Assembly: GCA_964558645.1 (NCBI GenBank)
Contig: CAZLEV010000014.1
Location: forward strand, 8,773 to 72,772
DNA: 64,000 bases
Source: an uncultured archaeon
GTDB lineage: Archaea > Asgardarchaeota > Thorarchaeia > Thorarchaeales > Thorarchaeaceae
Direction: 5' to 3'
Both the position numbers and the translations under genes were made by a program. This document shows, in pieces, positions 8,199 through 57,064 of the stretch (its first letter is position 1; every line of letters begins with the position of its first letter). A model generated the notes under the pieces. That model made no database searches. It was not told where the DNA came from and saw only the letters and a list, made by a program, of their open reading frames with translations.

Positions 8199-8467
8199 GT
8201 TGTCTACCTCTCGTTGCCTAGAGCAGAAAATCGCCCTGAACCAAATAAATGAACTTGTGCCAAAGCCGACTCACTGATTTCGCTCATAGAGTTCCTCTTC
8301 CGATTTGCTCTTGGGATTATGTCTAGGCCGCCTCCTTAAAACAGAAATGGCTAGAGCTCATATATCTTACCATGCTTCTTAGCCCTAGATGCCATTGCCG
8401 ATAGGTTCATGTGTTCTTGGGAGTCAGCAGACAGGCCGCATTGAACACGGTCCAGCCGGTGAAATAA

Positions 8468-12873: not shown

Positions 12874-13302
12874 TTGCAGAACAAGAAATCGTTCGTTCTC
12901 TGTCTGATAGGCGGAGTTCTTCTCATTATAGCAGGTGCTGTGGGAAGTATTGGTGCGCTTGAGTTTCTGAGTGTGATTGGAACCATTCCCGAGCTGGAGT
13001 TTTTGGTGCCCCTTGTTGACATCCTGCTCAAGGTGCTGATTTTCATTGCAGGTCTCGGAGGGATCGGCGTCATTGCCGGGGGCTTTCTCATCACCACTCC
13101 ACGTGTGGGAACGGGAAAATTCATCATAGGAATTGCCGCAGGGATGGGTCTCATTGGACTTATCATACAGCTAGTGAAAGTAGTATACTTCGCAGGTGTG
13201 GAAGGCCTAGTCAACCTCTTGGAGGCCATCTCACAGTCAATCGGCTGGATTGGGATCATCTTCACTATAATCGGCAGAAGAACTGCCAGCACACCCGATT
13301 AG
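12874..13302 (+). CDS. Small multi-pass membrane protein
   Basis: About four Gly-rich hydrophobic helices; probable TTG start at 12874. Confidence 0.7.
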   Translation: MQNKKSFVLCLIGGVLLIIAGAVGSIGALEFLSVIGTIPELEFLVPLVDILLKVLIFIAGLGGIGVIAGGFLITTPRVGTGKFIIGIAAGMGLIGLIIQLVKVVYFAGVEGLVNLLEAISQSIGWIGIIFTIIGRRTASTPD

Positions 13303-44363: not shown

Positions 44364-45152
44364 CTATCTACGCTTGATGACCCAGAAGATTGCCACAACC
44401 GCCACAATGCCGATTGCGAGCAACAGAAGTCCACCACCGTCACCAGGAACTAGAGAACCTTCTGCCAGATTCGTGTACGCCACGTACACAGGATCCTGTT
44501 GAACTCTCAGACCGTTCCAGTCCGGAAAGGTCACCGAGTACCACCATTGACTGCTATGGAATGCAGTCTGTGCGTTGGTAACAAGATGCTGTGGACTATT
44601 GTAGGTATTCCTGACCTGAGCAGATAGGCCATAGGCCATGTGAGCGAAGAGGAATGCAGACAGGGGTGCTTGCCATGCTATGAGCAGGAAGTCCCCAGGA
44701 TTCGTAGCCAGCAGAGCATTCAGAGCATTGACTCCCTGCAAGACTGTGATTCCGCTTGTTTCGTTTATCAGGTCGTATTCTCTACCTAGACCGATGTCGA
44801 AGGCACGCTCCTGATCATCACCAATCGTTATGGTCAGGTTGTCATCCAGCAATTCCGTGCTGGTCGGAGGAGTAATCTTGTTTCCACTTGAGCTGCGGGT
44901 CACGTTGTAGTTGCTCTCAAAGGTCGAGAGATAGTGAACCGCACTTATCGCCATGCTCTCGCTAATGACCTCCGAGGGGTCCTTGTCCTGAAAACCCATC
45001 CGAACGCGATTTACCTGTCCTATGGTATAGACGGTCTCAGCGTGTACCTCGCCCGTTGTCTGATCAATCTGGATGTCATATTCAATGACTATCTCGCTGA
45101 ACAGCACAGTCATGAACGGGAACAGAAGGCTGAGCCAGAAGCCACCCTGGGC
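44364..45152 (-). pseudogene. 3' remnant of a C-terminally anchored surface protein, truncated next to the TnpB element
   Basis: C-terminal TM plus KRR but no signal peptide; frame stays open upstream of the ATG (AQGGFWLSLLFPF) up to a TGA about 25 nt beyond the tnpB stop. Confidence 0.65.
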
Positions 45153-47470
45153 TGAAACAACCGTTCATTGTAAGTTGGACAAGCTTGGACATCAAGCAGT
45201 CCGTCCAGGAGCGGCACTGGACTGGTGATTGTGCACGTGAATGATGTTTCGTGCCGCATTCACATCGGCATGGAAGTGCTCCTCACACCTCCCACAGTAG
45301 AAGTACTCCCCACCCCTTCTCTCCCTCGTGGAACTCTCATGCTCCACCCGGACTCCCCGCCCCCCACAGACATGGCAGGTCTGAGAGGTCCACGCCGGGC
45401 TCACCGTCCAGATCCCACCGTAGCGGTGGCCCAGAGTCTGCCGCATGTACCGTATGGTGTCCAGCACCTTGGACCAGAGATTGTTCGATAGCCGCCACGA
45501 GTGAGTGCCATAGCCCCTGGGCGGCTGGTAGTTTTTGAGGTTCTCCAGATACAGGGTCTTGACCCCGTGGCGCTCACAGAACCAGACGGCCTCTGACGCA
45601 ATCTGTCGGGCTATCTCCCTGTCCAGCCTGCGAATCTTGCGCCAGATGGCTGCAAGACGACGCTCCTTCTTCCTCAGATGCCCGGGCCTTGGACAGTCCT
45701 CCCCGTGCTTCTTCTCCCAGTTGTTCCGCATCAAGGCCACTCTCGATGACAACTGCCGGGTCTGCTGTCGGAGAAGATCCCTCTTCTCGACCAGCCCTTC
45801 AAGAGAGATGAGCTCATCGACATACTCTTCCTCACCATCTCTCACCGAGAGCACGATAGGCACACGGATTCCTCGGTCGGCACCGGCTCTCCTGTTGTAG
45901 TGCCGTTCACCCAGGACCGCATCTACCATCTCTCGAGTTGGCGGGAGGAAGGGGATCTGGAGTTCTACTCTGTGCTCACGAAGCAAGAGGCGAGGTGGGC
46001 CGCAGGTTCTGGACTTCCTGAGCTGCTGCACCTTCTCCTTCAGTTGTGCAAGCTGCTCAGGGTCCGCATCCTTTCGGTTTCTCCACTTCGCCAACTGGTA
46101 GGTAGTATGCTGGAGTTCGATGGTGTTCATGAGCTGTTCGTGTTGATCCTCGAACCGCACGGCCCGGAATCGCAGCTTCTTGGCTCGCAGGTGCTTCCCA
46201 GCTCGCTCTGCCTCATCGCCCTTCATCCGGTCCTTGACGGCAGCCCGTGGGAGCCAGTCCAGAAACCTGAGGCCAAGGGTTCTGACTCGGAAGGGCGAGG
46301 CATCATGCTCCGCTCCCTCCATCGCCTCTGGCAGCTTCAGGAAGAACAGCACCTCGTTCTCCTTCTCCAAGTCCTGTGAGTACCAGTAGCCCTGACCGGG
46401 AGAGTTCTCGGTGCTTGCTGAGAAGTCCTCGGTGTGGGAGTACATCCTCGGGACCTTGAAGGGATAGCCCTCCGTGGTGAACTGATGAAGGAGGGCCTGA
46501 ACGGAAGCCATGGCCTCTGAGCACTCCTTGTTATCTTTGACGTACCGTCGAACACGGCGCCGCTGCGATGGTCTGGAACCAAGGGGCTCTCCGCGTTCGC
46601 TCAGGATGTGCTCATCGAGAGCTCGACGAAGCTGCTTCAGAACAGAGAGGGCGTAGTAGTAGCCTGAACCATTGTTCTTCGTGCTCTCGCATCTGGAGCG
46701 CAGATCTTTTACCATGTCCGAGGGGATGTATTTGTTCTTCAGTAATCGCAGAAGAGTATCCTGTTCCTCATTGAGAAGTCCGATAGCTGTCTTCATGAGC
46801 TGACGCCGTAGCCAGTTGGACTGGATGATCCGAGCCGCCTGCTCCAGGACGTTCCGGTAGAGTCTCTCGAAGCACTGCTTGCTGATATCGGGATTGTCCT
46901 TGTATGCAAGATACTCCTCCTTCTTCAACAGGACATATCCCTGTCCTCGATAGGAGTTCAGCTCGTCTCCAAGGAAGTCAATCCGTTCACGGGAAGCATA
47001 CACACGCTCGAGAACGAGATTCACGAGCTCTACATACTTCTCGAAGTATCGACCCAGAAGAGAGAGGTCCACATCCCTGACCTTTCGCCCGGTAGCCGCC
47101 TCGATATCTTTTCGTACAGGTTCAGGACTCCAGCGGCGAAATCGAGGATCGGGTCGCTTCCCTTTCCCCTTCGTGTTCACCTCTCTATCTACCGAGCAGA
47201 GGGTGAACGACTGTACCAGATACTTCAGTCCCGTATTCTGATGCGCGGTTGATGGAAACAATATAAGTTTGCCATCCATTGTGAGATGCTTCTGGGAATC
47301 ATCAGACTCCTCTTGCTTCCGGGGACGGCGCCGGACTACCTTGGTCATCAATCGTGCACCTCTCTTCTGTCTGGGTCTGATAATATAATCTCATGAACCA
47401 ATATAAGTTTATCAAGACGAAAAGGCAATTAGAGCATTATGAAGCCTATTTCGCTTCTATAAGGCTCTCA
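45153..47470 (-). mobile_element. IS200/IS605-like (TnpB-only) element; boundaries approximate
   Basis: tnpB-like gene; candidate right end ...GGTTGTTTCA at 45153; imperfect hairpin at 47431-47468 upstream; no tnpA seen. Confidence 0.55.
45192..47351 (-). CDS. tnpB: Large TnpB/Cas12-like RNA-guided endonuclease (719 aa)
   Basis: RuvC-I GADRG (D492), RuvC-II LYLENL (E603), Zn finger TSQTCHVCG...CGRC, RuvC-III HADVNAARNI (D696). Confidence 0.9.
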   Translation of the reverse strand: MMTKVVRRRPRKQEESDDSQKHLTMDGKLILFPSTAHQNTGLKYLVQSFTLCSVDREVNTKGKGKRPDPRFRRWSPEPVRKDIEAATGRKVRDVDLSLLGRYFEKYVELVNLVLERVYASRERIDFLGDELNSYRGQGYVLLKKEEYLAYKDNPDISKQCFERLYRNVLEQAARIIQSNWLRRQLMKTAIGLLNEEQDTLLRLLKNKYIPSDMVKDLRSRCESTKNNGSGYYYALSVLKQLRRALDEHILSERGEPLGSRPSQRRRVRRYVKDNKECSEAMASVQALLHQFTTEGYPFKVPRMYSHTEDFSASTENSPGQGYWYSQDLEKENEVLFFLKLPEAMEGAEHDASPFRVRTLGLRFLDWLPRAAVKDRMKGDEAERAGKHLRAKKLRFRAVRFEDQHEQLMNTIELQHTTYQLAKWRNRKDADPEQLAQLKEKVQQLRKSRTCGPPRLLLREHRVELQIPFLPPTREMVDAVLGERHYNRRAGADRGIRVPIVLSVRDGEEEYVDELISLEGLVEKRDLLRQQTRQLSSRVALMRNNWEKKHGEDCPRPGHLRKKERRLAAIWRKIRRLDREIARQIASEAVWFCERHGVKTLYLENLKNYQPPRGYGTHSWRLSNNLWSKVLDTIRYMRQTLGHRYGGIWTVSPAWTSQTCHVCGGRGVRVEHESSTRERRGGEYFYCGRCEEHFHADVNAARNIIHVHNHQSSAAPGRTA

Positions 47471-47542
47471 TAACTCTTTTCTTTTCTCTGTTTGGTCACA
47501 GTCTATTTATAAGTAACTTTGACTTTAGACTCTAGAAGTATC

Positions 47543-50500
47543 ATGGGACGCAGACCGAGATTGCTTCGCCCGAATGCTGTGCTAGCGAGAGCGAAGCATG
47601 CTGGTCTCATGGCCCTTGTCAACCTCCTTGGCCCTAGAGCCAGTGGCGACCTCGTGAAGTACTACCGTTCAACAACAAAGATGTGGGATGCCGTTCGATC
47701 TGCTCTTCGGGCTCAGGGCGGAGAGCGAGAGGACTACCTGGTTCTTAACGACACGGAGCCAAACATGCGGAAGTCCTTTCTCCAGTTCCTGTGGCACAGC
47801 ACTGTACCCTACGGCAACAAGGAGTTCAAACGGGTCTACGACTGGACTGAGGGTACGGTGGGGCCGCTCAATGTCCTCTTGAACTACGCGGGAGCACGAC
47901 TAAGGGACCTGGCAATGACGCGGTATCCCTTTCCTGAACCACGGGTCTTCCAGATAGCAAGGTTCCCGGATGGCACGGTGAGGGTCTATTCTCTAGCCCT
48001 CGTCAACCGGCTGAAGGCAAAGGGTCTGTACCCACCAAGTGACTTCGGCAAGAACACCGAAACCTCCTGGAAGGCGGGCTACAGCGGGACAACAAAGACT
48101 CCACAGGTCTACCTTGCGCACCCCACTCTCCCAAGCCTTGATTTTGTCGATATGATACGCGCCCACGTTGTCGAGCTCTGCAGACAGTGCTTCATCTACA
48201 GTGTTCCTCGCACTGAGGCCCACCGCTACATCCGACTCCTGGTCTACCGGCTGCGACCCTTCCTCGACTGGGTCTACACTGAGAGGGCCACAGGCCGACC
48301 CAACTTCAACCGGGATGCCAACAGGGAACTCCGAGAGATCGTACTGGAGATCAGAGCGTTGTACGGACTTCATGCCGGGCAGAGACAGTCGATCACTCGG
48401 TCCCTAGATATACCATCGCCAATCACTCTTGGGGATATCCGTAAGGCGGTAAAATGTCTCCCGCAAAAGACGGTGGATGAGGGCGAGATGACACTCTATC
48501 AGAGCATGAAGGACCAGATCGATGCCGGGACTGTGGTGGAACGGGATGCCGACAAGCTCACTGACCAGCTCTCCTCATCGACTTCACAGGAGGGCAACCG
48601 CTGGCACAGGATCCTCCTCTCGGGCTTCCACCACCCTGCCTCACTGAAGCAGGTGGTCTTTGCCGGGGACACCATGTTGGACCAGCCCTCCTCCGTCTTG
48701 GCTGTCGCAGAGCTTCCCGTAGACTCACGACGGGGACAGGCTGACCTCGTGTTCTTCCTCCGCCGAGAGCTCGAGAAGCGGACCATCTGGACACCGATCA
48801 TGATTCTTGAGGTCAAGACCAAGAGTGCCTTCGATATCAACCTCTACGGTGTTGAGGTGGGGAGCAGAGAGGAGAACGAGTATGCGCCCGCCTTCTTTGC
48901 GTGGAAGAGGGCACTCACAGGGGGCGAGTGGAATGCATTGCTCACATCACCGCCGAAGAAGAGCACAAAAGGTCAGCTCGATGCGTACGAACAGGCCATC
49001 ATCAGGGAGTACAAGCGCACGGCGGACTTCGACCCGACACCGCCCACCTCTCTCTGGAAGGGGGTCATCGTCCTGGATGCTGACCAGATTCCCATTGATG
49101 CATACTCAGCATTTCAGACTCTCATCGAAAACCTGCTGGTGGAACTGACAGGTGACACTTTCCAGGCCCCACCAAAGACTATCTCACAGGTGCTTGATAC
49201 AGACAGTATCTTGCCTTCTCCCCGGGTGGCGCTGCTCCTTCTGCCAGACGCAGGCCCTGATAGAATCCTCTCTCAGAGAGCCCCTCCGGCAGAGTTGGTC
49301 TCCGAGGACCCCTTTGCGGATCGCATTACAGACGACCGCATACTCACAGTCTACGTGTCCGTTCCCTCCCCGACATCATCAGGTAAGACGTCCGCATGGC
49401 AGTCGTCCAACTGGCACCTTCTCCACCACATCAGAGAGTGCAGAGAGGCCTCATCGCAAGAGATAGGTGTGTTCTGGCTGGATCTCATGGGGGACTACCA
49501 GACGGCTCAGCTGGCCAATCTACGGTTTGGACTTGACAGACTCCTTGCCGAGAGGAAGATATCCCGGCAGGAACACGGCGAGCTGGTCGCCGAGGTGGAG
49601 GATATCTCCTTCGTTGACCTTCATGTTCACACAGAGAAACTCCTGCGGGGCGAGAACGATTCCATAGAGGGCATGCTAACCACTATCTGCAATGCTGTTG
49701 AAACCGAGGTCGAGAAGATCATCATCATCGATGGGTGGGACGAACTGAGTAAGATGGTTCCCAATCATTCTCGTCATCTCCTACGCGCCCTGGAAGTGCA
49801 GCTACTGGATACGCTCCCCTCGACAGACACGAACATCATCTGGATCGATACCGGGACCGAGGACACCCTGACCTCCGCAGACTGTCAGCGAGGATGCATC
49901 AAACCTCTCCGCCATGACTCTCCCCGCAGGACGCACCTCGACGAGGTGATCTATAACCTCCCGTCCCCTCCGCGCGTCTTCGGCAACCTGTCCCCCTGGC
50001 GTGAGGACATACGAGTCATTGTTCAGGACACCCCCACATCGGCACCCCCATGGAGAACCACCATCCACGTCCCTCACCTTTTGGGTGCAGCAGAGCGATT
50101 CCGGGGGGCCTCCTCGAGGCATGGTTCACTCTCACAGGATGATGTGGCAAGGTTGGAGGTGAACGACTCCAGGATGTACGCGCGGAACATCAACCTCTCC
50201 TCCATCCAGTCCGGGCTGGGGAACCTAACCATGGACACGCTCGACAACGTCATGGAACAGTCCTGCAGTCTGGTTCCGAGTCTATGCCGTGCGAGAGACG
50301 GCCAAGAACAGCAGCCGCAGGAGGCACTGGAGATTCCGCAGATACTGGTGCAGGGTATCAGCTCTGCCAGGGCAAGTACCCAGCGGCAACGCCTCCGGTT
50401 CCAACCGGCTCGACCGCCTCCAGACCCCGTACGCTCTAAGGACAGGTATGTGGAGTCTGGGAAGATCACACGGCGGTGGTTCTATGAACGGAACCCCACA

Positions 50501-53167
50501 CCCCGGCCTGAGATACCTGCCCGGCCTCGTAGCCTCTGTCGCCCACCAGTTCCTTCTGAATTGGATGCTGTGACTCTTGACAGCTGTAGCACACGGAGAT
50601 GGGAACTCAAGCGTTTCCTCACAACTGCAAGATACTTGGCAGCACGACCCCTAGGCAGGACCCTCAAGGGTGTCTGCGAGGAGATTGCCGACCTCTGTCA
50701 GGATGTCCTCTCAGACTCTGAAGACACTGGGGATGGCGATGCCTACTTGGATACCCTGTCCTTGGTCCGAGATATCATCCTCTCAGAAACATCCCTATCT
50801 CCGGTCTGGGAGAGACTCCGACCCGGACGGGAGCAGCTTCTCGATCTCCTGAACTCTGACAACAGGAAACATCTGGAGACCATCACAAAAGAGATTCCGG
50901 ATGCTCTTCTTCTCTATGGAAACAACCTGTTCCTCATGGTCTGCGCGGCTGCGCAGGAGGAGAACTCTTGTCACTACGAAACGCTGTGGGCAGCGCTGGC
51001 TGAGTGGACGCTCTACCAGATGGGACTACGGTCCAAGGACAGTGCCTTCAAATCGAAGTATGACCTCTATTCCATCTACCGGACCCTCCGGTCCCGCGCA
51101 CGGACTCTATCTGACCGGAACATTCCGGAGACCTCCCTCTCACAGGCATCCACTGGCCAGATCATCTGGTGGGAGGAAGGAGATAGCAGCAAAGGCCTCT
51201 TGGTGTTTCCTGACCAGCGGGGAGAGATGGTCTCAGGCCTGGTCACCACCGGGGCCGATGCGTCTCTCCGACCGACGTGGTATCGATGTGATATGCATCC
51301 AGGCTCACTGAGGGAGTACTCAAGGAGTACTCTAAGCTCGGAGGAACGGACTACCATCATGCTTTCGGATGTGGCTGAGCACAGGATACTTTGGCTGCCT
51401 ACTGATGATGATGAGTGGTGGCCGTACCTCCTCACCCACGGATGCCCCGACAAGAACCAGCGGACCATTCCCTGGCTGAAACTCACTGATCCCTTCACGG
51501 TCCCCGATATCACCCAGAGTCTGCTCATCCCGCCAACACCAGACAGTGACCCCGGTCAGGCCGTGGACCAGTATCTTCGCGAGCTTGGCCAGCTGGAGAG
51601 ACCCGTCACGCCTGTCAAGCTGGAGGTCTCTGTGGATCCTCGTCGAGGGGTGTATGTGGTCCAGTTCACGGGGGATGGCATCTCTGTGGAGGAGGAGTTC
51701 AGCGACACTGATGAGCTGGTGGGGGTCCTCCGCTATCCCATCCGAAGAGGGGTTGGATACGACACTGCTGCCGGGGCGGTCACGTGGGACCACAAAGAGG
51801 ACATCACGTACACGGATGACTCCCTGACCTGCCTCATCCCGCTGGTCTTGAAGAGCAGGTTTCTCCCTGACCACTACTCCTATCCAGAGAGCTGCGCTGA
51901 GTTGTTGGCCGCATCGGCGGGCGGGGATGTGACGCTGACGATATGGACTGAGAGGAGTGGAAGCGGGTTTCGGCTGCAGCTTCAGGGACTGGAGGATGAC
52001 TCACCCCTCAGATCCCTCGAAGAGGCCTCTCCCTCTCTGTACGAGGTGGGGCTCCTTGCCGAGTGCGAACAGCTCATCGACACAAAAAACCGGCTTCGCC
52101 ACGAGGTGGAGCTGGACGTGTCAGGCCACTTGGACCTCAGTGCGTCACAGGTGGAACGGTATCCTGCCCTCTCTCATGCACTGGCAGAGGTGGATCGGGA
52201 TGCCTTCGACTGGAGTCGTGGCTCGTGGGGTGTCCGGTGGAGCTATGTCTCACGCGAAGACCGGCTGACGTGGAGCATCGTGGAACTCTCCTCTCGGCGA
52301 GCATGGCTGGACCAGACCTATACGTTTCAGCCTGATCCTAGTTCCAGCGTTGATACCGTCCTCGAGGCGTTCAAGCAAGACGTCGCCGCTGTGGTGCCTC
52401 TCGGACATCTTGATGGGTTGGAGGACTCAATGGCAGAGCTCAGGGATGAGCTGGAGAGTCATGGCTGGAGGGACACACCTCCGACGTACGTAGGCGAGGT
52501 CCAGCACGGAGTGGAGGAGTATACCCTGGTCATCAGCAGGGTGGAGAGGGATGGCTCATTGAAGCGGGTGGAGGCCATCAGTCTCACCGCTGAGCGGGTA
52601 GAGGAACTCCTTGAGGTACTTGACCACGAGGGTTTCGAGGCCTGGCCGTACTCTCTTGAGAATCAGGGGGAGATACGGGAGGCGCTCAAGGCAATCCATG
52701 AGGGAGTGGATCTCTCTGACGTGGCCGTAAATGAGGACGATGTACTCGCGAGGGAGTACGAAGAAGTCATCACAGAATATAGAGAGGAGGTTCTAGAGGC
52801 GCCTGAGGAACTGAAGTATCTAGCAAAGACGTTGGTCTACTACGCTCAGCTTTGCGCTGAGAGGGGGCAACCGGTGGAGGCGCTGCAGCTCGTAGAGGAA
52901 GGGATCGGTCTGCTCAGGGAGGAAGACCTGAGCGACATCATCGTCCTTCAGGCTCTTGCGAGAGGACTCATCCTCAGGTCCCACTGCCTCCTTCATCTTG
53001 ATATCGAGAAACGAAACGAAGTCAAGAGAGATATGGAGGAGTCGAGAGGGCTCTTGACAGAGCTTCGAAGACGTGGAGAGAAGATCACTGCAGACACCCT
53101 GGCAACCAAGATGCGAGCCATTGAGCCACAGATTCATGATGATTCAGACGGAATAGACGGACGTTGA
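47543..53167 (+). CDS. Giant multidomain protein: PD-(D/E)xK nuclease, P-loop NTPase-like domain and C-terminal TPR
   Basis: GQADLVF...ILEVKTK...QLDAY; PTSSGKT and IIIIDGWDEL; C-terminal LAKTLVYYAQLCAERGQPVEAL; ATG at 47543 preferred over TTG at 47519. Confidence 0.75.
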   Translation: MGRRPRLLRPNAVLARAKHAGLMALVNLLGPRASGDLVKYYRSTTKMWDAVRSALRAQGGEREDYLVLNDTEPNMRKSFLQFLWHSTVPYGNKEFKRVYDWTEGTVGPLNVLLNYAGARLRDLAMTRYPFPEPRVFQIARFPDGTVRVYSLALVNRLKAKGLYPPSDFGKNTETSWKAGYSGTTKTPQVYLAHPTLPSLDFVDMIRAHVVELCRQCFIYSVPRTEAHRYIRLLVYRLRPFLDWVYTERATGRPNFNRDANRELREIVLEIRALYGLHAGQRQSITRSLDIPSPITLGDIRKAVKCLPQKTVDEGEMTLYQSMKDQIDAGTVVERDADKLTDQLSSSTSQEGNRWHRILLSGFHHPASLKQVVFAGDTMLDQPSSVLAVAELPVDSRRGQADLVFFLRRELEKRTIWTPIMILEVKTKSAFDINLYGVEVGSREENEYAPAFFAWKRALTGGEWNALLTSPPKKSTKGQLDAYEQAIIREYKRTADFDPTPPTSLWKGVIVLDADQIPIDAYSAFQTLIENLLVELTGDTFQAPPKTISQVLDTDSILPSPRVALLLLPDAGPDRILSQRAPPAELVSEDPFADRITDDRILTVYVSVPSPTSSGKTSAWQSSNWHLLHHIRECREASSQEIGVFWLDLMGDYQTAQLANLRFGLDRLLAERKISRQEHGELVAEVEDISFVDLHVHTEKLLRGENDSIEGMLTTICNAVETEVEKIIIIDGWDELSKMVPNHSRHLLRALEVQLLDTLPSTDTNIIWIDTGTEDTLTSADCQRGCIKPLRHDSPRRTHLDEVIYNLPSPPRVFGNLSPWREDIRVIVQDTPTSAPPWRTTIHVPHLLGAAERFRGASSRHGSLSQDDVARLEVNDSRMYARNINLSSIQSGLGNLTMDTLDNVMEQSCSLVPSLCRARDGQEQQPQEALEIPQILVQGISSARASTQRQRLRFQPARPPPDPVRSKDRYVESGKITRRWFYERNPTPRPEIPARPRSLCRPPVPSELDAVTLDSCSTRRWELKRFLTTARYLAARPLGRTLKGVCEEIADLCQDVLSDSEDTGDGDAYLDTLSLVRDIILSETSLSPVWERLRPGREQLLDLLNSDNRKHLETITKEIPDALLLYGNNLFLMVCAAAQEENSCHYETLWAALAEWTLYQMGLRSKDSAFKSKYDLYSIYRTLRSRARTLSDRNIPETSLSQASTGQIIWWEEGDSSKGLLVFPDQRGEMVSGLVTTGADASLRPTWYRCDMHPGSLREYSRSTLSSEERTTIMLSDVAEHRILWLPTDDDEWWPYLLTHGCPDKNQRTIPWLKLTDPFTVPDITQSLLIPPTPDSDPGQAVDQYLRELGQLERPVTPVKLEVSVDPRRGVYVVQFTGDGISVEEEFSDTDELVGVLRYPIRRGVGYDTAAGAVTWDHKEDITYTDDSLTCLIPLVLKSRFLPDHYSYPESCAELLAASAGGDVTLTIWTERSGSGFRLQLQGLEDDSPLRSLEEASPSLYEVGLLAECEQLIDTKNRLRHEVELDVSGHLDLSASQVERYPALSHALAEVDRDAFDWSRGSWGVRWSYVSREDRLTWSIVELSSRRAWLDQTYTFQPDPSSSVDTVLEAFKQDVAAVVPLGHLDGLEDSMAELRDELESHGWRDTPPTYVGEVQHGVEEYTLVISRVERDGSLKRVEAISLTAERVEELLEVLDHEGFEAWPYSLENQGEIREALKAIHEGVDLSDVAVNEDDVLAREYEEVITEYREEVLEAPEELKYLAKTLVYYAQLCAERGQPVEALQLVEEGIGLLREEDLSDIIVLQALARGLILRSHCLLHLDIEKRNEVKRDMEESRGLLTELRRRGEKITADTLATKMRAIEPQIHDDSDGIDGR

Positions 53168-53176
53168 GAATATTCC

Positions 53177-53419
53177 TCATCCAAGAGTCTTACTTGCACC
53201 CAGTTCAATGGTGCGGGCTATCTGCAAGCGGTTCTTGTGAATGGCCGTGGTGATGCGGTAAAGCGACACGATGAGGCTGTTGGTCTTGTACGTCTCGTAG
53301 AATCTCTCCTTTTGCTCGCGGAGCAGGTGAGCCGCTTCAGGGAATTGGTATTCCTCTCCGGTGGTCGATACCAGCTCGACGAGCGCATCAGCAATCTGTT
53401 GGTCGATGGACGAGTCCAT
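53177..53419 (-). CDS. Small helical hypothetical protein
   Basis: 80-aa ORF with plausible composition, convergent on the giant gene. Confidence 0.5.
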   Translation of the reverse strand: MDSSIDQQIADALVELVSTTGEEYQFPEAAHLLREQKERFYETYKTNSLIVSLYRITTAIHKNRLQIARTIELGASKTLG

Positions 53420-53517
53420 GATACAGCCATCCTCTCAGACTCCTGCACTGGCCTATATAGACTGCGCCATTAGAAGGCGATATCGTTTTGAGTTCGCTCT
53501 TTCAATTGATGGGTATC

Positions 53518-53964
53518 ATGACTCTTGAACGGGGAGTACTGGAGAGCATCTGCAGACTTGTGATGGAGCTGAGCATGAGAAAGCGTCGTGGGCTACACAC
53601 CATGACACTGAGGAGGATCAAGAGGCTCTTGGAGACGATGGGCTGGTCGGTCATCCTAGAGTTCGAGACCTATTTCGACACGGTCATCAGATACAGGAAA
53701 AAGTTGTCGCGGGTGCGTGGCTTTATCGATCTCCTTGCTCGGAAGGGAGAGAGGCAGGTCATTGCTGTGGTGTTCGACAACACCAACGTCCTGAAGTATC
53801 GGAGCATCGAGAAACTCCTGCAACATCCGGGGATGGTGATAGGAATGACCGCCGGTCGCTATGGGGTGGACAATCGGGCACGGATTGAACGGGTCATGCG
53901 GGAACGGGGGCAGTGGAGATGCTCGGAGTTCTGGCTGATAGAGGTGGGTCAGGAGAGGATTTAG
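53518..53964 (+). CDS. Hypothetical protein, degenerate restriction-endonuclease-like fold
   Basis: LETMGWSVILE...GFIDLLARKG...IAVVFD resembles a PD-(D/E)xK core without a canonical ExK. Confidence 0.5.
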   Translation: MTLERGVLESICRLVMELSMRKRRGLHTMTLRRIKRLLETMGWSVILEFETYFDTVIRYRKKLSRVRGFIDLLARKGERQVIAVVFDNTNVLKYRSIEKLLQHPGMVIGMTAGRYGVDNRARIERVMRERGQWRCSEFWLIEVGQERI

Positions 53965-54113
53965 CGATTTGTCGGCGATTTCAGTCCCGTGTCAGAGGAG
54001 TGGGTTCTGGACTCTCAAGGTCGGCTGAACCTGCAGTAATGTTTCATAGCTAGATTAGGAATAGTGGCTAGTCATGAAGAGGTTTATGAACCCTCAGGCA
54101 TCTTTTCTAACAG

Positions 54114-54623
54114 ATGGTAGTCGTGGACGAATCTCATCTAGAACACATTCACAGGGTTCGGGGAGAGCAATGGACCATCATCATCACAGCGATTCTTTTT
54201 GGCTTGACTCTTAACCTGACATCCGACTTCATCAGTTCAGTTTATGACGTGTCTGTTGATTCAGCTACTTTGGCAGTTAGAGGTATTGTTGCAGGTCTAG
54301 CCTCTCTCGTCACAATAGCCACGATGTGGTGGCTAGCAGTTCGCAGTCTGAGTCCTCTATGCAAGGTACAACGTGATATCCAAGTTTCATATTTCTTCGA
54401 TACTGACACTGGATATCCGCATGATGTTCCCGGATACCCTCCCACGGAGAGGGTTCTTTCCGAGTTTGCTCGATCTACAGAGAAGCAAAAGGAGGAATTC
54501 AGTCAGGCAATAAGGAAGGCGGGCGAATCGACGAAGTCTGCCACATCGGAGCTCCCAAATCTGGTTCCTTTCCTCGAACTTCTCACAATGCTCAGGCGGA
54601 ATGAGCTCAGAAAACCTCGTTGA
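54114..54623 (+). CDS. Two-TM membrane protein, possibly 3'-truncated
   Basis: Two hydrophobic helices; overlaps the convergent ORF by 237 nt. Confidence 0.5.
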   Translation: MVVVDESHLEHIHRVRGEQWTIIITAILFGLTLNLTSDFISSVYDVSVDSATLAVRGIVAGLASLVTIATMWWLAVRSLSPLCKVQRDIQVSYFFDTDTGYPHDVPGYPPTERVLSEFARSTEKQKEEFSQAIRKAGESTKSATSELPNLVPFLELLTMLRRNELRKPR

Positions 54624-56077: not shown

Positions 56078-57064
56078 GGCTCTGTGTGGAAAGTCACCTC
56101 CCGACACACTCCAGATAGTTCAGTCGACTCACATTGTGCAGGACCACCTTGAGCAGCAGCTCTCGCCGTCATTCCTTGTATCTCCGTGACTGGAGGCTCC
56201 CACCGAATCGCACCTTCATCATGCTGAACACGGTTTCCACAAGACTCCGCTGTCCATACTCGTGAACCCGCCTCCACTCCACAGGGTCTCGTCGGTACTC
56301 CAGGATCAACTCCCTGTAGCCACGATGTCCCCGGGACCGGGCACGCAGCCGCTTCTTGGGCTCGATGGCAGGATAGGCTCCCAGGTCGGCGATGTGCCCG
56401 ACGTTGTCTCGGGAGATGTAGGCCCTGTCACCATAGACAGTCTCCAGCTGGGACCAATCGACCCGTCCCATCAGGGCGACCAGATGTCGTGCATCACCAC
56501 CCGGCCGAGCCTTGACTCTGACCCCATGGACCATGAGGGTGTCGGTGTCTACAGGTGCGTGGAGGGCCGTGAACCGCCGTCTCCGCGTCCTCTTGAACCG
56601 GACAGTCTGCCACTCGCCCCCGGTGGCGTGAGAGAACCCGGTGGCATCCACCGCGATCCGCCTGGGAGGGGGACGTCGCCGGGCAACGGTCTCGTACAGT
56701 CGGTGAAGGCCATGGGGCTCCAGTCGTTTCAGCGCTCCGTTGAGGAGGGTGTGACTGGGTGGTCGCTCCAACCCGAGTCGATGGAGGAGTTCTGGCTGAA
56801 AGGCCAGCCACGCCACGAAATCACGATAACCCATGCCGGAATCGAATTTGAGTCCGAAGAGGACAAACAACACCGGGAGGGGAAACTCCACTGGTCGGCC
56901 ATAGCGAGACCTGACATCCGGAATGGTATTGCAAAGGCTCATAAGTTCTTGAAGCAGGAAGTGAAAGCGGCGAGCTTTGGCCGCTTCGTATGAGACGGTG
57001 TAATTCGTAATTCATGTGATGCGGTCAAATTCGCCTCTGAATCCTTGTATTATTTTACAGAGCC
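56078..57064 (-). mobile_element. IS5-family insertion sequence (about 987 bp), decayed
   Basis: Terminal inverted repeats GGCTCTGT (56078) and ACAGAGCC (ends 57064) around a DDE transposase; no clear target duplication. Confidence 0.8.
56094..57015 (-). pseudogene. IS5-family DDE transposase with premature stop and probable 5' frameshift
   Basis: IAVDATGF, YGDRAY, RSLVETVFS; in-frame TGA at 56169-56171 followed by RRELLLKVVLHN; 7-bp tandem duplication at 57000-57013 near the ATG. Confidence 0.8.

Follow-up and report, generated by a model that had tools for sequence, protein, structure and literature searches.

What does a giant protein do beside a TnpB gene in a thorarchaeal genome, and does it move the DNA on which both are carried? 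We examined this for a locus within a stretch of 64,000 nucleotides (the window hereafter) and conclude, with a probability of roughly 0.6 for the statement taken whole, that the giant gene encodes the Cas1-like protein 'aCas1' of a Thorarchaeota-specific aCas1-TnpB mobile element and acts as its DNA-handling enzyme. The parts of this statement differ in firmness. That the giant is a Cas1-like partner gene of a TnpB element is highly probable, and the narrower proposal, that it is the transposase of the element itself, stands at slightly under an even chance.

The giant gene and its tnpB partner

The giant gene occupies 47543..53167 on the + strand and encodes 1,874 aa from the ATG at 47543, while its open frame reaches back to a TTG at 47519, giving the 1,882 aa by which residues are numbered here. 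The 1882-aa reading frame given in the preliminary description is therefore real, a single open frame running from 47519 (TTG) or 47543 (ATG) to 53167, and the ATG is its likely start, since the nearest paralogue is 1,874 aa long and the ATG is preceded, at a distance of about 30 nt, by the TATA-like sequence TTTATAA (47506-47512). More than 80 full-length homologues exist, nearly all from Thorarchaeota; the homologue search returned 82 (E=0 to 3e-83), and a profile search of 1.84 billion representatives resolved the family into 133 clusters at 50% identity. The giant was found in five of the ten sampled genomes of the host family, the present one counted, and it did not turn up in any of the 71 other sampled Asgard genomes. 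Nothing significant was returned for the giant from Pfam, NCBIfam or PADLOC, or for five of its homologues from Pfam, TPR included, and a profile of 37 homologues gave a single chance match (E 3.8) among PDB sequences.

Head-to-head with the giant lies tnpB (45192..47351, - strand), whose 719-aa product carries the RuvC motifs GADRG, LENL and HADVNAA together with Cys-rich zinc-finger motifs and matches PF07282 (3e-12), NF040570 (4e-20) and the Cas12f/Cas12u models of PADLOC. The two genes are separated by 191 nt (47352..47542) with 35% GC, as against 57% in both the giant and tnpB, which bears out the AT-rich spacer of about 190 nt noted earlier. TATA-like boxes are placed about 30 nt before each start, that on the tnpB side being TTATATTA on the minus strand near 47383, and the spacer may thus be read as a divergent promoter region shared by the two genes. 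In most related loci the corresponding gap measures about 160-350 nt.

The preliminary description had proposed asking whether homologues co-occur with large TnpB. Of 80 related loci, 64 have a TnpB-like gene upstream of the giant in divergent orientation, 14 of the remaining 16 having less than 3 kb of upstream sequence, which is too little to judge. The giant gene is a partner of tnpB. The paired TnpB proteins fall into two types, one of ~715 aa (26 of the 80 loci) and one of ~560-590 aa (40 loci), and both occur in two loci. Since sister giants joined with 100/100 support in the tree carry different TnpB types, it appears that the giant keeps 'a TnpB' while the type of TnpB is exchanged.

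A chain of predicted DNA-enzyme folds

According to the predicted structures, the giant protein is a chain of DNA-enzyme folds. The N-terminus had been described as about 350 aa of unknown character; this no longer holds, as its first ~290 residues take up the fold of a Cas1 catalytic domain in the AlphaFold2 model of the N-terminal part (model 1, pLDDT 86.5). This predicted alpha-helical domain spans residues ~18-290 (47570..48388, + strand). When model 1 was compared by VIA-align with 48,161 chains, the best 12 matches were all Cas1 or casposase chains, with Z from 13.3 to 9.3 and the next family at 6.7, values to be read with the caveat that for helical domains a Z of ~13 can arise by chance. 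The best match was 8flj_A (Z 13.3, rmsd 3.8, 178 aligned), followed among others by 4n06_B (Z 12.7) and the casposase 6opm_A (Z 11.3), and model residues 2-261 aligned to Cas1 residues ~80-345. Foldseek likewise placed Cas1 chains highest in probability (0.35-0.75), with no match at E<=0.001.

Residues E102, R105, N118, H201, D208, D211 and R214 are invariant in 37-50 giant sequences. E102, H201, D208 and D211 form an E...H-x6-D-x2-D pattern which, in a by-eye line-up, resembles the Cas1 consensus drawn from 30 Asgard proteins (E-G...Y, P-x-N-x-L-L-x-Y-G-Y, H...L-D-x-E-x-F-R). In E. coli Cas1 the metal-binding residues are E141, H208 and D221. A four-stranded beta insertion (~142-198) is the only sheet in the modelled domain. 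The N-terminal beta-sandwich domain of Cas1 is absent from the model, and there is no room for it, as the helical domain begins at about residue 10. Sequence methods gave no link to Cas1: a genome scan with PF01867, the Pfam model of Cas1, at E up to 10 found only the canonical cas1 on contig C4 and not the giant; hhalign of the giant N-terminus against 30 Asgard Cas1 proteins gave an 18-residue motif only (E 0.03, probability 1.6%), not significant in local and global modes alike; and an HMM of the N-terminus run against the 1.84 billion representatives recovered family members only and no bridge to Cas1. The Cas1 assignment thus rests on the predicted fold.

Residues ~360-560 (48596..49198, + strand) form a PD-(D/E)xK nuclease domain of the RecB/Cas4/MGME1 type, with D409, E431-x-K433, K435 and Q486-x3-Y490 as motif residues. 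The core (D409, E431-x-K433) and QLxxY helix picked out beforehand were correctly placed, and the conservation that was to be checked is there: all 37 homologues compared keep D409, K433, Q486 and Y490 unchanged and have E or D at position 431. VIA-align matched this part to MGME1, Cas4, AddA, RecE, RecB and Exo5 (Z 5-6.7), the Cas4 chain 8d3l_I scoring Z 6.5. The core is of the Cas4 type, PD-(D/E)xK with a QxxxY motif; as to the four Fe-S cysteines of Cas4, residues 340-600 contain no Cys and no conserved Cys column.

A RecA-superfamily fold follows at residues ~603-914 (49325..50260, + strand), identified in a second structure model (model 2, pLDDT 80) both by VIA-align (Twinkle, T7 gp4, RAD51 paralogues, KaiC and Elp4-6, Z 11.7-9) and by Foldseek (E 7e-5, probability 1.0). 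The P-loop domain is therefore RecA-like, in keeping with the earlier remark that this NTPase does not look like a standard STAND. The motifs then proposed, PTSSGK623T and IIIID738, stood as to position and P-loop fold but not as to a conserved Walker A lysine. The present copy reads S-P-T-S-S-G-K623-T against a family consensus of T-S-S-G-N-A-A-A-W, the canonical G/AxxxxGK[ST] is not matched by the family, and the lysine position in 83 members is occupied by K in 5, N in 42, V in 11, E in 8, I in 5 and R in 3. The Walker B-like hhhhD738-G-W is conserved. A working NTPase is doubtful, since the lysine is kept in only 5 of the 83 members, and going by these residues the ATPase-like domain is probably dead. 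Inactive RecA-like modules offer a parallel: Elp4/5/6, XRCC2-type RAD51 paralogues and KaiC-like proteins have a similar fold (Z 11-11.7), and in such modules, as in most members of the giant family, the Walker A lysine is gone while the Walker B aspartate is kept; the giant's module differs in being an internal domain of a giant nuclease.

Beyond it lies a low-confidence Pro/Arg-rich linker (residues ~862-1004, 50102..50530, + strand); most of model 2 residues 318-457 have a pLDDT <50, and the linker is probably disordered. A confidently modelled region, helical (~1023-1199) and then beta-rich (~1211-1589), comes next (50585..52285, + strand). These about 570 residues (~1023-1589) are conserved across the family. 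In the structure comparisons of model 2 the RecA domain took up all the listed matches, searches of Pfam, PDB sequences and the Atlas found nothing for 1023-1589, and the ESM Atlas gave no usable match for 1015-1600. The C-terminal tail (residues 1590-1882, 52286..53164, + strand) is variable, the least conserved part of the giant with 15-45% gaps in the family alignment, and is helical and TPR-like in the present copy, where the Pfam match to TPR_14 is sub-threshold (E 0.22, residues 1771-1796) and the language-model features of the ESM Atlas resemble TPR clusters (score 0.93, 158 shared features). The terminal TPR proposed for the protein is thus only putative in the present copy, and it is not a conserved feature (0 of 5 homologues by Pfam). 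Of the roughly 900 aa earlier left unassigned, 1023-1589 still has no match.

Copies, ends and an empty site

The present genome holds giant-tnpB pairs on contigs C14, C27 (93%/89% identity) and C6, together with decayed copies: one on C10 derived by deletion, a tnpB standing alone on C2, and pieces of tnpB where contigs end. Just past the tnpB stop (45159..45191, - strand) comes the right end of the element, which closes with ...ACAATGAACGG(T) in the tnpB sense and is followed by the presumed guide and DNA of the host. The copies on C1, C5 and C6 share this boundary, as does a related locus, L048, at 99% identity. The insertion has cut a surface-protein-like host gene, of which the 3' part (264 codons, 44364..45158, - strand) adjoins the right end and the 5' part (~660 nt) does not occur in the present assembly; orthologues are 453-477 aa long. 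In G084, a genome of the same genus, the insertion site is empty and carries an uninterrupted 474-codon frame, homology resuming at window position 45165, and the closest giant matches of that genome (86-87% identical) lie on contigs other than that of the empty site. As several full and decayed copies exist in one genome and the site is empty in another of the same genus, the giant-tnpB pair is mobile. Together with the pairing in 64 of 80 loci, this sustains the earlier suggestion that the giant is a functional partner or cargo of a TnpB element.

The present copy has both genes intact, but its giant-side end seems to have gone, along with the 5' half of the interrupted host gene, and the copy is thus probably defective on that side. 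Searches of the giant side for terminal inverted repeats or the right-end motif gave chance-level matches only, neither a clean target duplication nor flanking repeats were found in the window, Rfam had no match in it, and no tandem array lies near the giant or tnpB. An 8-nt inverted repeat around the presumed guide (ATGAACGG, 39 nt, CCGTTCAT) was dropped as a feature of the element: it is absent from other copies, and in G084 the sequence belongs to the host. The insertions adjoin tRNA genes in 8 of 43 loci. Where the site is tRNA-Gly, about 9 of 54 positions are different between the two copies of the tRNA 3' half, which looks more like the outcome of site-specific recombination than like a fresh duplication.

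If the giant is the element's own DNA-handling enzyme, its Cas1-like domain would carry out strand transfer (integration), as in casposases, its RecB-like nuclease would cut or trim the element ends, and the degenerate RecA-like module would hold an oligomer or DNA. TnpB would be guided by an RNA that runs from the right end out into the flanking DNA and would cut unoccupied target sites, the element being thereby kept or copied by recombination, and both genes would be driven from the shared 191-nt AT-rich promoter region.

Known systems and competing explanations

The protein aCas1 is said to have been defined by Makarova et al. in 2020 in CRISPR J. Two Asgard TnpB groups, Cas1H-Asgard-1 and -2, are each linked to a Cas1 homologue in elements predicted to be mobile (Altae-Tran et al. 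2023, PNAS, PMC10691335). The present locus shares with these aCas1-TnpB loci the Asgard host, a Cas1 homologue adjoining an Asgard-specific TnpB, and two TnpB types, and our ~715-aa and ~560-590-aa types fit the published Cas1H-Asgard-1 and -2 (PMC10691335). From the TnpB groups and the host we infer that the aCas1 of Makarova et al. 2020 is the present giant. As in the published loci, GTTCACTCA is found downstream of tnpB in loci of the ~560-590-aa type, whereas the window's tnpB, of the ~715-aa type, has ACAATGAACGG at its right end and not GTTCACTCA. The giant is hence not "new", as it had been called, and fits a kind already catalogued; the present locus is one more member of a family that was catalogued by computational analysis alone. 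The size and domain map of aCas1 are not given in PMC10691335, and the giant's domain chain, the repeated swapping of TnpB types and the occasional IS607 TnpA or RadA-like genes may be additions to the published account. What is added to the catalogued family comprises the domain map with its probably dead ATPase-like domain, a clean empty site in a sister species and evidence that one TnpB is exchanged for another beside a giant that is retained. We also considered aloposons (Wu et al. 2022, PMC8813620) and rejected them, as they have tandem genes for proteins of 3,000-6,000 aa and a different architecture.

Two further systems bear on how the element might move. Casposons are self-synthesising transposons whose integrase is a Cas1-family casposase. 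Like the present element they carry a Cas1-fold enzyme (6opm_A, Z 11.3) on mobile DNA without CRISPR, and their insertions often adjoin tRNA genes, as in the 8 of 43 loci here. The present element differs from them in that no family-B DNA polymerase, terminal inverted repeats or 14-15-bp target duplication was seen, and the giant differs from casposase in being without the Cas1 N-terminal domain, fused to about 1,600 further residues and paired with TnpB. The IS607 family resembles the present element in a TnpB guide that is read outward from the right end into flanking DNA, in unlike ends and in having no target duplication, but here the places of tnpA and tnpB are separated by a 5.6-kb gene, and TnpA is missing from the present copy, from the genome as assembled and from most relatives.

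The leading rival explanation holds that the element is an IS607-family transposon moved by the serine recombinase TnpA, in cis or from another copy, with the giant as passenger or helper. A helper might act, for instance, once TnpB has cut the empty site, the RecB-like part resecting and the RecA- and Cas1-like parts aiding the copying-back recombination. Several giant-bearing relatives do carry IS607-type TnpA. An intact gene with MerR-HTH and Resolvase domains abuts the giant stop codon in L049, L057 and L077, and tnpA remnants persist at L053, L074 and L107. In L100, tnpA, the giant, a RadA-like gene and tnpB are co-directional, and L093, L104 and L123 have tnpA pieces upstream of the giant arranged as in L100. 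It may be noted that in the L100 subfamily the RadA-like gene is separate and follows a shorter giant, unlike the internal RecA module of the present protein. The tnpA-bearing copies share an end motif, TAATCAATGTCTAGG, just past tnpA, and the unlike ends of the element and the failure to see a target duplication fit the same explanation. Against this, tnpA or its traces occur in only about 10 of the 80 loci as compared with giant and TnpB in 64, and no such serine recombinase (MerR-type HTH and resolvase domain) was found in the window. The present genome (93% complete) has no resolvase-domain (PF00239) gene despite several recent copies, and all catalytic residues of the 5.6-kb 'passenger' are invariant across the giant family. 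Homology between element copies ended at the giant stop codon in each of three comparisons, which implies that a form without tnpA has spread. We regard movement by TnpA as less likely than not, although the IS607 recombinase beside the giant in some relatives sharpens the question of which enzyme moves the element.

A different kind of role is suggested by the combination of folds. Cas1 is the enzyme by which CRISPR arrays acquire their immune memory, and Cas12 descends from TnpB; an element with Cas1-like and TnpB components outside CRISPR is relevant to the question of how parts of transposons came together in adaptive immunity. The giant-TnpB pair might offer an RNA-guided nuclease coupled to an integrase, and there is a slim chance that the giant services TnpB as a fused Cas1-type integrase and Cas4-like trimming nuclease, for RNA-chosen insertion or for installing guides; were that true, the pair would be a surviving intermediate on the way from TnpB transposons to the adaptation machinery of type V CRISPR-Cas. 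Slimmer still is the chance that the giant is an adaptation-like module whose integrase and trimmer renew the TnpB guide, a TnpB/type V intermediate. This would suit the presence of Cas1-like and Cas4/RecB-like folds in one protein beside the ancestor of Cas12, as in the Cas4-Cas1 fusions of types I-U and V-B, where Cas1 and RecB-family folds share a polypeptide next to a Cas12-type nuclease; in the giant, however, the domain order is reversed and there are no Fe-S cysteines (340-600), Cas2 or array. A hypervariable stretch near a CRISPR-repeat-like GTTCACTCA downstream of tnpB has been reported by Altae-Tran et al. (PMC10691335), and GTTCACTCA stands at the right end of our ~560-590-aa-type loci. 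In our alignments, however, the variable DNA starts at the element end, i.e. it is host flank, as in ordinary TnpB elements, and the presumed guide of the present copy is host gene sequence in the empty site of G084; moreover, no repeat array is present and no Cas2 was identified.

A last reading takes the giant for an Avs/NLR-type protein that acts on its own in defence or conflict and came to lie beside tnpB by chance or as cargo. Defence was one of the two alternatives of the preliminary description, and the order of nuclease, P-loop and helical repeat, with a TPR-like tail, does resemble Avs proteins. This reading is hardly credible, given that it matched none of the PADLOC families, that its P-loop fold is RecA-like and not STAND with the lysine gone in 78 of 83 relatives, that the TPR is weak and not conserved, that the TnpB pairing is conserved, that the giant is multi-copy with decayed copies, and that no defence island lies near it. 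The neighbourhood of the pair in the window consists of metabolic genes and other mobile DNA.

The giant gene and its TnpB partner

The Cas1-like giant gene (probably 'aCas1') is a single long open reading frame in the window, running on the plus strand from either TTG 47519 or ATG 47543 to 53167; residues are numbered here on the 1,882-aa version that begins at the TTG. Judged from the sequence, ATG 47543 is the likely start, because the nearest giant paralogue is 1,874 aa long and this codon is preceded, at a distance of about 30 nt, by the TATA-like sequence TTTATAA. As the preliminary description had claimed, the gene stands head-to-head with tnpB (719 aa; 45192-47351, minus strand) across an AT-rich spacer, which is 191 nt long with a GC content of 35% vs 57% in both genes. 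RuvC and zinc-finger motifs are readable in tnpB, which gave clear family matches in Pfam, NCBIfam and PADLOC; scans of the giant against the same three collections gave no significant match. Altae-Tran et al. 2023 (PMC10691335) described two TnpB groups specific to Asgard archaea, Cas1H-Asgard-1 and Cas1H-Asgard-2, each associated with a Cas1 homologue; they proposed aCas1 as the transposase and mentioned a GTTCACTCA motif for aCas1-TnpB loci. We likewise observed two TnpB types beside the giant, and GTTCACTCA at the tnpB-side ('right') end of loci with the ~560-590-aa type. The window's pair is in all likelihood a further member of these catalogued, predicted-only aCas1-TnpB elements.

The giant family is real, conserved and narrow. 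A search of 5.8 billion clusters returned 82 homologues. Most of them share about 40% identity along the whole protein, and those that carry a name come almost without exception from Thorarchaeota MAGs. With an N-terminal profile, no more than 133 clusters at 50% identity were picked up among 1.84 billion representatives, and each of these seems to belong to the family, whole or as a fragment. Among 81 sampled Asgard species genomes, the window's included, the giant was present in 5 of the 10 from the host's own family and in none of the 71 outside it. Conservation peaks at residues 80-280, 360-440 and 600-640 and is lowest after 1560.

The suggestion that the giant is a partner of TnpB was right, as a TnpB-like gene lies divergently upstream in 64 of 80 related loci from GTDB genomes, usually across a gap of 160-350 nt; 14 of the 16 loci lacking one have less than 3 kb of upstream sequence. 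The ~715-aa type, as in the window, was noticed in 26 loci and the ~560-590-aa type (PF07282, 4e-15) in 40, two loci having both. These types are interleaved on a tree of giant N-termini (L047-L126 and the window), and the sister giants L052/L055 and L054/L056 bear different types (support 100/100); the giant thus retains a TnpB gene as its partner, although the type has been swapped repeatedly. Besides the window copy on contig C14, the window's genome has head-to-head pairs on C27 (giant and tnpB 93% and 89% identical) and C6 (39% and 68%). Two further copies are decayed: at C10:1-1032 the interior has been deleted, so that tnpB (window 46697-47071) runs straight into the giant 3' end (52496-53160), and at C2:25232-27619 a full tnpB and spacer are followed by only the first ~13 giant codons. 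Fragments of tnpB also sit at the ends of several contigs. Three remoter giant paralogues (C10:127874-132058, C2:428286-430793 and C30:3757-8403; 28-36% identity, frames of 1,541-1,726 aa) had no match nearby to the 719-aa TnpB used as the query.

Domains of the giant protein

We modelled residues 9-590 from an alignment of 83 sequences (pLDDT 86.5) and compared the model with 48,161 PDB representatives. The best 12 chains were all Cas1 or casposase (8flj_A, Z 13.3; 4n06_B, 12.7; casposase 6opm_A, 11.3), the next family scoring 6.7, and they covered residues 2-261 of the model via the C-terminal catalytic domain of Cas1. Foldseek was weak alone, yet gave its highest probabilities to Cas1 chains. 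Furthermore, compared by eye, the invariant residues E102, R105, N118, H201, D208, D211 and R214 agree with a consensus drawn from 30 canonical Cas1 proteins of Asgard archaea. The assignment of the modelled N-terminus to Cas1 is structural and not sequence-based, because a profile-profile comparison with Asgard Cas1 aligned the P-x-N-x-L-L-N-Y motif alone and was not significant, the Pfam Cas1 model did not detect the giant, and the N-terminal beta domain of Cas1 is missing from it. Residues ~288-581 resemble PD-(D/E)xK nucleases of the RecB family (MGME1, Cas4, AddA, RecE, RecB and Exo5; Z 5-6.7), with D409, K433, K435, Q486 and Y490 invariant. Cas4 proper was ruled out, since this region contains no cysteines.

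A second model (residues 545-1600, pLDDT 80) gave residues ~603-914 a RecA-superfamily fold like that of Twinkle, T7 gp4, RAD51 paralogues, KaiC and Elp4-6 (Z up to 11.7; Foldseek E 7e-5), in agreement with the earlier view of a P-loop fold other than STAND. Of 83 relatives, only 5 retain the Walker A lysine, as against 82 for G622 and 77 for D738, and most family members probably have no ATPase activity in this domain. Residues 862-1004 are of low confidence; the models of 1023-1199 (helical) and 1211-1589 (beta-rich) are confident, but neither region matched a known family in Pfam, PDB sequences or the ESM Atlas. The preliminary description was largely right: its motif positions (D409, E431-x-K433, Q486-L-D-A-Y490, P-T-S-S-G-K623-T and I-I-I-I-D738) are all correct, and the terminal TPR it proposed survives as a weak likeness of the C-terminal tail.

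Insertion site and element ends

The right end is sharp at window 45159, reading ...ACAATGAACGG in the tnpB sense, a boundary common to copies on C1, C5, C6 and L048 (99% identity), beyond which the flanks are unrelated. A minus-strand host frame stays open up to this boundary, with 264 codons vs 453-477 aa in orthologues. In G084, a genome from the same genus, no insertion breaks the host gene and the match to the window restarts at 45165, so the presumed guide of the window copy is identical to the target in the empty site. The closest giant matches of G084 (86-87% identical) are on contigs other than that of the empty site.

On the giant side, homology between copies ends at the giant stop codon in three comparisons (window/C27, L063/L076 and L114/L115); about 65 bases past that point are common to C27 and C10 and absent from the window. 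The assembly lacks ~660 nt at the 5' end of the host gene, the DNA right of the giant is a patchwork of repeats with an IS4-type transposase, and the giant-side end is probably gone from the window copy. The IS4-type DDE transposase (56169-56942, minus; PF01609, 2e-17), with copies on C13 (89%), C18, C9 and C3, belongs to the mobile-DNA patchwork replacing the missing 5' half of the host gene. Three small ORFs of 80 aa (minus), 158 and 169 aa (plus) lie in repeated DNA at 53177-54623 and have no Pfam match. The segment 53262-53642 recurs on C1, C15 and C26 (86-88%), and 53678-54589 on C32 (96%) and C27 (77%), on the latter again downstream of a giant gene. Directly past the C27 giant begins a PCNA-like ORF (PF00705, 9e-6; C27:21483-22349, or L002:631-1497, minus), whose relatives on C8 (86%) and C1 (77%) make it one of several PCNA-like paralogues repeated in this genome.

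Candidate enzymes for element movement

An intact IS607-type TnpA (MerR-HTH and Resolvase), convergent with the giant, abuts its stop codon in L049, L057 and L077, and remnants occur in L053, L074 and L107; the TnpA-bearing copies of the former group have a common end motif, TAATCAATGTCTAGG, about 45-60 nt past the tnpA start. At L100:7213-16461 an IS607-type serine recombinase, a shorter giant (1,426 aa), a RadA/Rad51-like gene and a 715-aa TnpB are co-directional. In this subfamily, which includes L093, L104 and L123, the RadA-like gene is separate, Pfam-recognisable and overlaps the giant stop codon. Given the tnpA beside the giant and the L100 row, an IS607-type transposon is the probable ancestor of the element.

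We favour, at a probability of about 0.45, the reading that the giant is the element's own integrase-nuclease, because tnpA is missing from most related loci, a resolvase-domain search of the window's genome (93% complete) gave zero matches despite several recent element copies, and the giant's catalytic residues are invariant without exception. The less probable reading is that a serine recombinase moves the element with the giant as a helper, and the TnpA genes and remnants adjoining the giant lend weight to it. The Avs/NLR-type defence protein proposed earlier fails on the RecA-like fold, the PADLOC null result, the poor conservation of P-loop and TPR, copy number and genomic context. A guide-acquisition role for the giant is improbable and finds no support here, since the variable DNA at the element end is simply host flank.

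Insertions beside tRNA genes are frequent: 8 of 43 loci have one no further than 400 nt from tnpB. At tRNA-Gly(TCC) sites an intact tRNA stands ~130 nt past the 3' end of tnpB, and the giant stop codon is followed by a repeat of the tRNA 3' half that begins in the anticodon loop and differs at ~9 of 54 positions (L063:5870-6071 and 13106-13160; L068:1103-1310 and 8345-8440). This pattern fits an integrase-type mechanism and does not single out the responsible enzyme. In L068 the repeat extends into a degenerate version of the motif at the right end of the element.
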